DNA of 25,309 nt. It comes from Patescibacteria group bacterium. Lineage in GTDB: Bacteria > Patescibacteriota > Minisyncoccia > Phycocordibacterales > SBAW01. The notes below the pieces were generated by a model, which did not search any database, was not told where the DNA came from, and was given only the letters and a program-made list of their open reading frames with translations. Numbering within the stretch: the first letter of the stretch is position 1; each line of letters starts with the position of its first letter. The position numbers and the translations under genes were made by a program. This document shows, in pieces, positions 6,440-10,156 of the stretch. The stretch covers positions 1-25,309 of the forward strand of contig JAUPWA010000040.1 of NCBI GenBank assembly GCA_030916835.1. Direction: 5' to 3'.

Positions 6440-6482
6440 ATTGATAAATGTCTACTTATGATACTCATAGACAAGTATCTAT
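6440..6482. promoter_or_regulatory. Two 16-bp pseudo-palindromic boxes in the nrdJ/arsR divergent intergenic region (candidate ArsR operator)
   Basis: ATTGATAAATGTCTAC (6440-6455) and ATAGACAAGTATCTAT (6467-6482) match at 11/16 as direct and 12/16 as inverted repeats. Box 2 has perfect ATAGA/TCTAT arms and overlaps the arsR ATG. Confidence 0.55.
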
Positions 6483-6852
6483 GAATCCGCAGCCACGAAA
6501 AAAGATGGGGATAAGGACCCCGAGAACAAAAAAAGAGCATGGTAAAGAGTTGACGCACGCTCGCCCCAGTTGGGTAGCGAGCGGCGAGGAGGAGCTCTGC
6601 CCCGAGTGTTTTAAGGTGGTCGGGGATCGCACACGATACAAGGTTGTGTGTATGCTTGGTAAAGAGCCGACAGGGCTTAATGTAAAGCAACTTACTGAAA
6701 AGCTACAGCTTAAACAGCCGACCGTGACCCACCATCTTAATATTCTACGATCAGTTAATGCGGTCGCCTCTGCGGACCTGGGGCGCCAGCGTGTGTATAC
6801 GCTCAATCGGGATGCTCACTGTTTTGAGGACTGCAAGATCCCGTACGCCTAA
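6481..6852 (+). CDS. ArsR/SmtB-family winged-helix transcriptional regulator, Cys-rich
   Basis: F..VGDRTRYKVV.ML.....LNV.QL...L.LKQPTVTHHL.IL.....V.....G..RVY.LN. Has CPEC before helix 1 and HCFEDC at the C-terminus. Start may be ATG 6481 or 6505. Confidence 0.85.
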   Translation: MNPQPRKKMGIRTPRTKKEHGKELTHARPSWVASGEEELCPECFKVVGDRTRYKVVCMLGKEPTGLNVKQLTEKLQLKQPTVTHHLNILRSVNAVASADLGRQRVYTLNRDAHCFEDCKIPYA

Positions 6853-6854
6853 AG

Positions 6855-6883
6855 TTGCAAAAAATAGAAAGGTGTGTTATTAC
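6855..6883 (+). promoter_or_regulatory. Candidate sigma70-type promoter for the structured RNA
   Basis: TTGCAA (6855-6860), 17-nt spacer, TATTAC (6878-6883) preceded by TG. The last base of the -10 box deviates from consensus. Confidence 0.4.
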
Positions 6884-6902
6884 AGAATTAGGTATGAGAG
6901 TT

Positions 6903-7140
6903 CACTTTGGGGTGTGCTGCAAATCGCCGTAAGGCGTTTGAACCCCAGAGTGAGGCCCGGAGTCTGGAGTACCCCCCACTCCAGCTCCGGGTTTTGCCTC
7001 AGGTGTCGGTGCGCCTTTCGTAGTGAGGTGTTTTGTAGGCTTTGCAGCAGTTTTACAAGATTCCTCTGTCTACGGCCCCCTGACTGGTTTACTGCCGGCG
7101 CATGCGCCGCGTAAACACTAACAGTCAGGGGTTTCTTTTT
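6903..7140 (+). ncRNA. Unassigned highly structured RNA (five consecutive hairpins, ending in a hairpin + U-tract)
   Basis: Hand-folded stems: 6903-6952, 6952-7000, 7001-7016, 7019-7074, 7077-7131. At least six G.U pairs and a GUAA tetraloop favour the + strand. No convincing ORF in the interval. Confidence 0.6.
7077..7140 (+). terminator. Intrinsic terminator-like long hairpin with U-rich tail
   Basis: CCCCTGACTG (7077-7086) pairs perfectly with CAGTCAGGGG (7122-7131); inner GTTTAC/GTAAAC and CGGCG/CGCCG stems; followed by TTTCTTTTT. Confidence 0.55.
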
Positions 7141-7168
7141 GCCAAAAAAACTGAGCTATACTATCTGT

Positions 7169-7564
7169 ATGTTGTTTCTTAAACTATACGCCACGGCGCT
7201 GACGACGTTTCTTGTGCTCGACGGGCTCTGGATCGGGCTGCTTATGTCAGGATTTTATAAACGCCAATTAGGTTTCCTGTTTGCTGACAAGGTAAGTGTT
7301 TATGCTGTTGTGGCCTTCTATCTTATATATGCTGCGGGTTTGGTGTTTGTTGTCATTGAGCCGAACGTAGGCAGTTCGCTCACGAAAGTCTTTATGGTGG
7401 GGCTGGTTGTCGGGCTTATGGCGTATGCAACCTATGACCTCACCAATCAAGCAACGATAAAAAATTGGCCCTTTGTTGTTACAGCGATTGACTTGGCGTG
7501 GGGTGCGCTCGTGACTGGTGTCGTTTCTGTCGTAACGGTCATGGTTGCGCGGTTTTTTTCATAG
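7169..7564 (+). CDS. DUF2177-family integral membrane protein
   Basis: Four hydrophobic helices; LD.LWI...M..FY..QLG, Y.TYDLTN.AT.KNWP..V..IDL.WG motifs. ATG 7169 lies 6 nt after TATACT. Confidence 0.8.
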   Translation: MLFLKLYATALTTFLVLDGLWIGLLMSGFYKRQLGFLFADKVSVYAVVAFYLIYAAGLVFVVIEPNVGSSLTKVFMVGLVVGLMAYATYDLTNQATIKNWPFVVTAIDLAWGALVTGVVSVVTVMVARFFS

Positions 7565-8386: not shown

Positions 8387-10156
8387 ATGACGCAAGAACA
8401 ACCAGCGCAGACTAATGCGCAGCCTCCGGTGCCCCCTCCCCAAACGCCTGTGCCAGTGCCTACCCCTACACCTACACCAGCAGTACCACCTCCCACTCCC
8501 GTACCGCCACCTAGAGCGGTACCACCAGTGCCGCCACAGGTTGCTGCGCAGCCGCTGCCTAAGGCGGCCGTTGAGGTGATGCCAAAGGCGGGCGCTACAC
8601 CACCGCATGGTTTTGCAGTCTCAAAAAGTCTCTTGTTTGGCGGCATAGCTGGGCTTGTGGTGGTCTTGGCGGTTGCAGGTACGGTGTATGCCTATGTTGA
8701 AAAAATAGGTCCGTTTGCACAAGTGCCGTATACCCAAGACAATCTTTTGTCGGGCCTTTTGCAGTCGTTTAGCAAGATACAAAGCTCTTCCTATACACTT
8801 TCAGGATCGGTGGCGGTAGGGCCTCGAGACCCTGATGCAAAACCTTTTACACTCACCATACCTAATGCTGCTGAGGTTGAGGAGCAGTATCGCAACGATG
8901 TTAAGCGCACAGAGGATGTCTCTACCATGATGGGTATACTAAAATATGCAAAAACATACCCACGTACCATAGGGGGCATTGCAAGTGCGAACACCTCAAA
9001 ATATTATGCGTCATCCTTTGCGACTACCGACCCAAAGACGCGCCAACCCTACGGATATGTAGTAGCCGAAGATGGTAAAAACTTTGCCCTCACTGTCTCG
9101 TTTGAGACTAATGACGCTATCAAAAAAATTAGACAGTCGTATGATTTTAGCTCCTCAACCACACAGATAACCGGCAATACTGTCATCTTCACCAAAGATA
9201 GCCCGTACTACATATACCTCTCTCATACACCACCAAAACCGTTCTTAGTGCAATTAAGTGACTTGGTACGCATGGCACCAAGCGAAATGCATGCCAAGCT
9301 CTCGGTAGGTGCACAGAGTGACTGGAGCAAAAAAGATGCTGATTGGAAGTTTAACGCTAATGCGACCGCAGACTTTGGCGACTTGAGCTTTAAAATTGAC
9401 TTTGATGCACTCCGTACAGATAGTTTGTACTATGTGCGCCTCAACAACATCCCGAGCATCTTTGGCAGCTCGCTTGCAGCCTACAAGGGGACGTGGATCA
9501 GTATTGATCCCGCCGCAACCTCGACACAAGAGGGGCTTGGCTATTCATATAGCTCATATGTGAAAAGTCTCTCAAGTAATGAGTCAGAGTATAAGAAGAG
9601 TCGTGAGGAGGCCGTGCAGTTTATGCTCGCCGCTGTTGCTATAGCTGACAAGGAACATCTCTTGAGCTTTGGTAAGCCTCCCTATGCTGAAGTGCTCAAT
9701 GGGCAGCGTGTCTATCGGTATGACCTTTCGTTCAACAAAGAGTCGATCCTTGCGTTTTATCAGCAGTTAGGCGTAGAAGCTCGAAAGTATCCCACTCTCT
9801 CTGGTGACACTTTGTTTGATGATCCGGGCATGGTGGAGTATCTCAAGAGTGATGCTTTTTCTCAGGTCTTTGACTATGTGTCTAAAAACACAACTCTTAC
9901 TGTATGGGTAGATACAGACGGGTATCTCACAAGAGTCTCCTACGGTATGCGACTTGTCCCGCCAGACACTGCGGTGATGCTCAAAGACAAGCAGGTGAAC
10001 GCGAGTATAGATTTGCTACTCACTGATATAAATACGCCGGTGCGTATTGATACGCCAACCGGGGCAAAGCCACTCCAAGAGATTATGGGCCAGGTGTATA
10101 CAAATCTGTACGAGTACGACAAGAGTGTTAGCACGAGTACAATAAAGGGAAAATAG
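8387..10156 (+). CDS. Single-pass surface protein: Pro-rich cytoplasmic N-terminus, TM helix, large beta-rich extracellular region containing a pilin-head-like insert
   Basis: 589-aa ORF; PT/PV low-complexity tract, TM LLFGGIAGLVVVLAVAGTVYAYV, C-terminal DINTPV.I..P.GAKP typical of LppX/LolA-like lipoprotein folds. Confidence 0.7.
   Translation: MTQEQPAQTNAQPPVPPPQTPVPVPTPTPTPAVPPPTPVPPPRAVPPVPPQVAAQPLPKAAVEVMPKAGATPPHGFAVSKSLLFGGIAGLVVVLAVAGTVYAYVEKIGPFAQVPYTQDNLLSGLLQSFSKIQSSSYTLSGSVAVGPRDPDAKPFTLTIPNAAEVEEQYRNDVKRTEDVSTMMGILKYAKTYPRTIGGIASANTSKYYASSFATTDPKTRQPYGYVVAEDGKNFALTVSFETNDAIKKIRQSYDFSSSTTQITGNTVIFTKDSPYYIYLSHTPPKPFLVQLSDLVRMAPSEMHAKLSVGAQSDWSKKDADWKFNANATADFGDLSFKIDFDALRTDSLYYVRLNNIPSIFGSSLAAYKGTWISIDPAATSTQEGLGYSYSSYVKSLSSNESEYKKSREEAVQFMLAAVAIADKEHLLSFGKPPYAEVLNGQRVYRYDLSFNKESILAFYQQLGVEARKYPTLSGDTLFDDPGMVEYLKSDAFSQVFDYVSKNTTLTVWVDTDGYLTRVSYGMRLVPPDTAVMLKDKQVNASIDLLLTDINTPVRIDTPTGAKPLQEIMGQVYTNLYEYDKSVSTSTIKGK

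Follow-up and report, generated by a model that had tools for sequence, protein, structure and literature searches.

What occupies the 316 nt between the stop codon of an arsR gene and the ATG of a DUF2177 gene, given that five hairpins lie inside this gap? The locus is found in a stretch of 25,309 nt (the window), and the initial annotation, made from the letters alone, had described an almost fully base-paired RNA with promoter-like and terminator-like ends. Our analysis indicates that the gap very likely holds a real gene for a folded non-coding RNA of about 250 bases, which falls into no catalogued family and occurs in only a few Saccharibacteria that are closely related to each other. Its function is probably regulatory, which is still a guess, and the locus is best read as a lineage-specific, modular small RNA (sRNA) gene in which a C-rich single-stranded motif is the candidate seed.

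Layout and fold of the putative RNA gene

The features of the locus are collected in Table 1. For arsR, the 123-aa start is also the one used by gene callers on related contigs. The promoter-like site of the RNA begins 3 nt past the arsR stop codon; a simple sigma-70 scan does not list it because its -10 hexamer ends in C. Positions 6853-6883 are nearly invariant in the related species G097, in a further lineage (L063) and in three loci with a shorter RNA (L064, L092 and L093), and a related version is present in G096. Read from the sequence, the RNA would start near A6890 and have its 3' end at the hairpin H5 with its U-tract, a predicted intrinsic terminator, which gives a length of about 250 nt (~6890 to ~7140). 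There is no terminator in the sequence between the arsR stop codon and the RNA, and arsR may therefore use the terminator of the RNA as well.

Table 1. Features of the arsR-DUF2177 locus (window positions).
Feature	Position	Strand	Description	Basis
arsR	6481-6852	+	Cys-rich ArsR/SmtB-family regulator, 123 aa from ATG at 6481	Pfam HTH_5/HTH_20, NCBIfam HTH_metalloreg
RNA promoter-like site	6855-6883	+	-35 TTGCAA (6855-6860), 17-nt spacer, extended -10 TGT-TATTAC (6875-6883)	Read from sequence
H1	6903-6952	+	10-11-bp outer stem, internal loop, inner hairpin GCC-GUAA-GGC	Fold z -5.0
H2	6954-6993	+	Two-part 16-bp stem capped by C-rich loop	Fold z -5.4
H2 loop	6971-6977	+	ACCCCCC, 7 nt, unpaired; candidate seed	Fold and comparison
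H3	7001-7016	+	Weak 6-bp hairpin; 2 of 6 pairs broken in G097 and L063	Fold z -2.3
H4	7019-7074	+	Irregular hairpin, sequence nearly invariant (95% identical to G097 and L063)	Fold z -3.3
H5 and U-tract	7077-7140	+	~22-bp hairpin (7077-7131), then UUUCUUUUU (7132-7140)	-32.6 kcal/mol, z -4.8
DUF2177 -10-like site	7157-7162	+	TATACT, 6 nt 5' of ATG; no Shine-Dalgarno sequence	
DUF2177 gene	7169-7564	+	DUF2177 membrane protein	Pfam DUF2177, E 6.5e-38

The fold is far more stable than expected from composition. With ViennaRNA, the 256-nt stretch reaches a minimum free energy (MFE) of -123.4 kcal/mol, compared to -86.0 +/- 4.8 kcal/mol for 200 dinucleotide shuffles (z -7.87), and none of the shuffles folded equally well. 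The helices H1 to H5, previously folded by hand, were recovered at the same positions, with H2 placed here at 6954-6993. The minus strand folds less well (MFE -103.9, z -5.3). About nine G.U pairs on the plus strand become A.C mismatches on the other strand, which explains this difference and points to a plus-strand RNA. The initial annotation had based the strand on both the G.U wobbles and the GNRA loop of H1; the first of these arguments stands, and the GNRA loop is not conserved, the H1 tetraloop being GUAA in the window and UUAC in both G097 and L063. The helix that closes the 5' and 3' ends in the MFE structure uses the U-tract of the terminator and is probably an artefact.

The downstream gene appears to have a promoter of its own. 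The TATACT of DUF2177 and its spacing are kept in relatives with the long RNA, with a short RNA and with no RNA at this position (seen at window 7157-7171, L038 1488-1503, L039 1489-1503 and L064 783-797). Since this site lies 6 nt before the ATG and there is no Shine-Dalgarno sequence, the DUF2177 mRNA looks leaderless. The separate -10 box of the next gene had been noted earlier, and it is now seen to persist even where the RNA is missing. Together with a conserved promoter-like site, a terminator hairpin with U-tract and the better fold of the plus strand, this agrees with the earlier view that the locus looks like a free-standing RNA gene and not a leader.

The RNA is taken to be non-coding because 1-nt indels are scattered across the alignment of homologues and the only mini-ORF, 12 codons at 6894, is unconserved: its frame and length differ in G097, and its ATG is ATA in L063. 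For the same reasons, a small-protein gene or a type I toxin-antitoxin gene was rejected.

No known RNA family accounts for the locus, as had been suspected from the lack of familiar signatures. Rfam 15 (4227 models, which cover riboswitches, 6S, SRP, RNase P, tmRNA, HEARO/omega RNA, raiA, OLE, ROOL, GOLLD, group II intron domains and retron msr) gave no match at gathering scores in the whole window. When positions 6700-7300 were searched at E up to 10, there was noise only (E>5), in the form of two chance matches: Pseudomon-1 at 13 bits, where the gathering score is 50, and a CRISPR-DR36 hairpin at 12.8 bits, where it is 38. The homologues and the short forms described below did not match Rfam either, and ARAGORN found neither tRNA nor tmRNA in the stretch. 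Additionally, the RNA is present in a single copy in its own 634-kb, 84%-complete genome (G000), which rules out a MITE or REP repeat, and G097 also has one copy. BLAST against phages and plasmids gave no match, and BLAST of the RNA against 60 relatives gave chance matches of 15-25 nt only. Pattern scans with the H4 apex and the promoter had no match in JGI metagenome contigs, a scan of viral contigs was likewise empty, and a scan of genome contigs returned G097 only.

Long and short forms among close relatives

Of 80 species genomes of the genus searched with a covariance model of the RNA (R1; 262 positions, 86 pairs), two had a match, G000 and G097, and a search of 150 other genomes from 131 genera of the order gave none. 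Further loci were found in public assemblies through the flanking proteins. These comprise same-species variants (L083 and L084), the G097 locus on an unbroken Logan contig (L066) and the additional long-form lineage L063. The homologue search that had been suggested at the outset thus gave homologues in a few close relatives only, and covariation among them is thin.

The flanking proteins also led to loci in which the RNA is much shorter. In three independent samples (L064, L092 and L093), the same promoter, U-tail and DUF2177 promoter enclose only ~65 nt, which form a small hairpin presenting UAUUCCCC and then a GCAA-capped terminator; the sequence 3' of the U-tail is also common to the long and the short form. 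A different ~80-nt RNA lies behind the related promoter of G096; of its two C5 runs, the first is part of an internal loop and the second of the loop of the terminator. The arsR gene of G096 (L038 1210-1324) is cut to ~38 codons, of which only the part corresponding to residues 10-39 of the window's 134-aa reading aligns. Where DUF2177 stands behind a different upstream gene, there is a gap of 30-33 nt without RNA, and TATACT is kept.

In a tree of DUF2177, the lineage with the short form is nested within the long-form clade (supports 83-94%). Therefore, the long form is probably ancestral there and the short form derived. As the nested lineage has swapped the body for a ~65-nt RNA, the five-hairpin architecture as a whole is not essential. 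Simple deletions from the long form were rejected as the origin of the short form, because the C-run and the GNRA-capped hairpin come in opposite order in the two.

Two runs of the same organism from different studies (X19 and X20) gave one contig each, covering exactly 7058/7059 to 7227/7228, and the X19 contig has 14 unlike bases ahead of the covered part. This suggests yet another body variant, whose similarity is limited to the 3' part of H4, to H5 and to the start of DUF2177. The locus is present in the data of roughly 15 public studies, but no run recorded as RNA contains it. Four public runs yielded short Logan contigs only, and the X18 data look like DNA sequenced at low coverage. In the GTDB assembly of G097, a break falls between the arsR stop codon and the promoter of the RNA (C2 and C10; L091 and L037/L088), at a place that the Logan contig L066 spans; this break may mark strain heterogeneity at the locus.

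Conservation between G000 and G097 points to selection on the RNA. At fourfold-degenerate sites, arsR and DUF2177 are each 55% identical between these species, whereas identity is 86% in the RNA promoter, 72-78% in H1-H3, 95% in H4, 93% in H5 plus tail and 96% in the DUF2177 promoter. The RNA is thus far more conserved than the neutral sites of both flanking genes and, on this comparison, is clearly constrained and under strong purifying selection, in line with the earlier suggestion that so ordered a stretch had been selected. The near-identity of H4 and H5 could partly reflect recombination between lineages.

The evidence for the structure differs between the hairpins. In five distinct sequences, 96% of the pair cells hold standard pairs, compared to 37-49% when the partners are slid. 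Double-sided changes are seen in three pairs, one in H1 and two in H2, and probably represent three events. H1 has one compensatory change from G-C to A-U and three one-sided changes that keep the pairing, while the two changes in H2 are from U-A to C-G and from U-A to G-U, and some of its cells are unpaired in G097 and L063. The pairs of H4 and H5 do not vary among the five sequences, and all changes in H5 between species keep the pairs; for these two hairpins it is only the computed folding energy that argues for the structure. Collectively, covariation speaks weakly for the structure, and H3, with two of its six pairs lost in G097 and L063, is doubtful and probably no conserved element.

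A C-rich motif and possible functions

The three architectures have a C-rich motif in common, which lies in the H2 loop of the long form, in UAUUCCCCCCAAAC of the short form, and in UUUCCCCCAUAAC together with the C5 of the terminator loop in G096. Within the RNA body, the long form and both short forms have nothing else in common than an unpaired C5-C6 motif of the type UU-C5/6-A-AAC. The number of unpaired C-runs differs, with one in the long form, two in the short form of G096 and one, half of it in a loop, in that of L064. Runs of C5 or more are rare in the genome, at about 4.5e-4 per base per strand, a frequency that gives no independent statistic since the motifs may be homologous. Such homology is itself not proven, because the C-run and the hairpin follow each other in different order in the long and short forms.

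The length of the C-run also varies between samples, with C5, C6, C8, C9 and C11 observed. The H2 loop of the window has C6, as does that of a JGI contig; two contigs of the same species have C8 and C9, and a contig of run X25 has C11, with CCCCC inserted behind 6971. In G097 and L063 the loop reads CACCCCC. This hypervariability may mean that the exact length is irrelevant. The proposal that the C6 loop forms a pseudoknot with the G-run of H1 is unlikely, as this G-run changes jointly with its own partner strand (GGGG/CCCC to GGAG/CUCC in homologues) while the loop remains C-rich.

We tentatively favor the reading that the locus is a highly structured sRNA gene of CPR/Patescibacteria, running from its own extended -10 promoter to the H5 terminator, which encodes a trans-acting regulator with the C-motif as seed; we hold this to be plausible but short of probable. 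In this reading, the RNA would be transcribed from the promoter just past the arsR stop codon and would end at H5. It would act in trans, and the active part would be the single-stranded C-rich motif in the H2 loop, since this is the only body element also found in the ~65-nt and ~80-nt versions of the same slot. The motif could pair with G-rich stretches of target mRNAs, for example G-rich ribosome-binding regions, while H4 and H5, which hardly vary, would stabilise and terminate the RNA and perhaps offer a platform for protein binding.

Neither a scan for G-runs nor the duplex energies with the 5' ends of neighbouring genes pointed to an mRNA target. A crude genome scan returned five ORFs in which a G5+ run lies no more than 20 nt from a likely ATG start; of these ORFs, four are without Pfam family and one is PilN-like. 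The crude gene calls gave no Shine-Dalgarno signal, which makes ribosome-binding statistics unusable. Duplex energies of the RNA with the 5' regions of arsR, nrdJ and DUF2177 were equal to those of shuffles (z between -0.3 and +0.4).

A more specific version, to which we assign a rather low probability, sees the locus of this episymbiotic CPR bacterium as a contingency riboregulator, in which the slot is fixed, the body is swapped or resized, and a slippage-prone poly-C loop (C5 to C11) serves as seed whose length retunes or switches pairing. If true, phase variation would act on the seed of an sRNA and not on a promoter or reading frame.

The favored reading of a trans-acting sRNA can be compared with the C-rich sRNAs of Firmicutes, such as RsaE/RoxS (Rfam RF01820) and the UCCC loops of Staphylococcus RNAIII. 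These are likewise stand-alone genes with their own promoter and intrinsic terminator, and the studied RNA resembles them in having its own promoter-like site, a Rho-independent terminator and no coding capacity, with both ends as predicted from sequence. Stable hairpins present an unpaired C-run in both cases, and in both the C-rich motif is the part that is kept across otherwise different versions of the RNA. However, there is no similarity in sequence or by covariance model. RsaE/RoxS is roughly 100 nt long compared to about 250 nt here, and RsaE-type RNAs have two to four C-runs where the long form has one. Furthermore, the C-run here is a homopolymer of variable length whose pairing is proposed by analogy, and the RNA occurs in few species, whereas RsaE/RoxS is a phylum-wide family.

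Two other groups are similar in some respects. Like the 3'-UTR-type sRNAs DapZ and MicL of enterobacteria, the RNA has its promoter at the end of the upstream gene, and without an intervening terminator a single hairpin would form the end of both the sRNA and the arsR mRNA. Unlike in DapZ and MicL, the promoter lies past the coding sequence and not inside it, and the unit persists where arsR is truncated, as in G096. To our knowledge, no Hfq-type context is known in Saccharibacteria. The raiA motif, OLE and ROOL, orphan RNAs that were discovered through comparative genomics, are also multi-hairpin, non-coding RNAs of ~200-350 nt with their own promoter and terminator, a design that is met here in a tiny, compact genome. 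Those families are widespread and rich in covariation, while the studied RNA is restricted to a single sub-clade of its genus, shows little covariation and gives way to a far shorter RNA in a sister lineage. Two traits are unusual: the swappable body in a fixed promoter-terminator slot, and the hypervariable poly-C loop.

In the literature we found no validated or described small regulatory RNA of Saccharibacteria or other CPR/Patescibacteria. A constrained non-coding gene of 250 nt is costly in tiny genomes. With its clear ends, simple C-run motif and natural long, short and absent variants, which amount to a ready-made deletion series, the RNA is a candidate for TM7 co-culture or enrichment work. 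The finding adds one more putative lineage-restricted orphan sRNA, and its weight depends on follow-up.

Other readings of the locus have to be weighed against a trans-acting sRNA. All variants have the RNA immediately upstream of DUF2177 and on its strand, with a terminator that ends ~28 nt short of the ATG. In addition, the 3' strand of H1 (6941-6952) can alternatively pair with that of H5 (7122-7133) at 10 of 12 bases, and this pairing could work against the terminator. Such an arrangement would fit a cis-acting leader or attenuator of DUF2177, in which a signal at the upstream hairpins decides between a stop at H5 and read-through. We consider this unlikely, as DUF2177 has its own conserved TATACT and no Shine-Dalgarno sequence, also in RNA-less relatives with the 30-33-nt gap. 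A riboswitch or leader has a conserved sensor and lacks a separate promoter for the gene, while here the body is replaced in L064/L092/L093 and in G096; a sister lineage would not be expected to exchange a sensor domain for a 65-nt body that is unrelated to it. There is also no match to a riboswitch family and no significant complementarity of the RNA to the 5' end of DUF2177, and H5 is very stable at -32.6 kcal/mol.

The RNA might instead bind protein or act as a scaffold. The H4-H5 half would then be a protein platform for sequestration, stabilisation or RNP formation, with the C-loop either incidental or a KH-type C-binding site. This might explain why H4 and H5 are 93-95% conserved, far beyond what the keeping of pairs needs, while H1-H3 drift at the rate of coding DNA. 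Against this, the short form lacks H4 and H5 entirely although the locus is still kept, and no motif recurs in the loops in the manner of CsrB or 6S. Domain searches detected no RNA-binding domain in the neighbouring genes, which leaves no linked candidate for a partner, and we see only a small chance for this reading.

A similarly low probability is given to the reading that the stretch has no function of its own and is either a structured 3' UTR or terminator of arsR, or left-over DNA where a nrdJ-B12-arsR block joined the DUF2177 locus. Conservation would then reflect recent shared ancestry or recombination, and the promoter-like site would be fortuitous or an insulator only. The lack of a terminator between arsR and the RNA, the very narrow distribution, and a body that can be replaced and differs greatly in length between close relatives are all compatible with this, as is the fact that in the genomes compared the slot is found only where nrdJ-arsR stands upstream of DUF2177. 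However, the flanks are near saturation (55% at fourfold sites) while promoter, H4, H5 and tail are 86-96% identical, and five consecutive stable hairpins (z -7.9) go far above the needs of a terminator. Moreover, the extended -10 promoter and the short RNA are kept in G096 although arsR is cut to ~38 codons, which means that the unit outlives the upstream gene.

It is very unlikely that the element acts at the DNA level, as a recombination site, a remnant of a mobile element or a REP/MITE-like cluster of palindromes. H5 is indeed a 55-bp near-palindrome, relatives are polymorphic for presence, absence and replacement, and the GTDB assembly of G097 breaks just upstream. Yet there is one copy in G000, one in G097 and none elsewhere in 230 genomes, neither a target-site duplication nor terminal inverted repeats were seen, phage, plasmid and viral matches are lacking, and the plus-strand fold is clearly better through its G.U pairs, pointing to RNA.

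A divergent housekeeping RNA (SRP, 6S or RNase P) is effectively refuted by the distribution, as the RNA is present in 2 of 80 genus species, found in 0 of the 150 other genomes and absent or swapped for 65-80-nt RNAs in sister lineages, and it has neither the SRP domain IV motif, the CR-I/CR-V sequences of RNase P, the single long 6S-type hairpin with central bubble nor more than noise in Rfam at E up to 10, even though the models of SRP RNA (RF00169), RNase P RNA type A (RF00010) and 6S RNA (RF00013) are without match in the 84%-complete G000. These missing matches are due either to gaps in the assembly or to divergent housekeeping RNAs in the genus. The tmRNA of G000 was seen below threshold only, where it is cut by a contig end (C27:2467-2706).

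Neighbouring genes

The Cys-rich ArsR has more than 650 homologues at ~60-73% identity in several classes of Patescibacteria, with records that include the names Paceibacterota, Nomurabacteria and Adlerbacteria, and it is present in only 21 of the 80 species of its own genus. It is thus a widely shared, possibly mobile regulator. A link of ArsR to defence systems was rejected, as the PADLOC matches are those of a generic wHTH. We also rejected an operator for ArsR that the nrdJ-arsR spacer would share with the promoter of the RNA: the inverted repeat of 16 nt at 6439-6454/6468-6483 is real, but has no counterpart at 6853-6900.

Further downstream, a 589-aa protein (8387-10156) that belongs to no Pfam, NCBIfam or PADLOC family is encoded between a 169-aa gene and a SWIB gene. 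The protein has 589 aa in G000 and L083 and 555 aa in L066 (the G097 locus), whereas L068, L072 and L073, which are relatives without the RNA, lack it at that position.

In 19 other species of the genus, the ArsR homologues are followed directly by coding sequence, with the exception of G003. There, a 63%-identical ArsR homologue (L108:1000-1500, minus strand) is followed by a consensus promoter (TTGACA, 17 nt, TATGAT) and a structured, ORF-free stretch of ~240 nt with a strong terminator at its end (z -4.65 for 416 nt). The sequence of this stretch is unrelated to the studied RNA, and it has no Rfam match and no homologue in G000. This second pairing of an ArsR gene with an orphan RNA may exceed coincidence.
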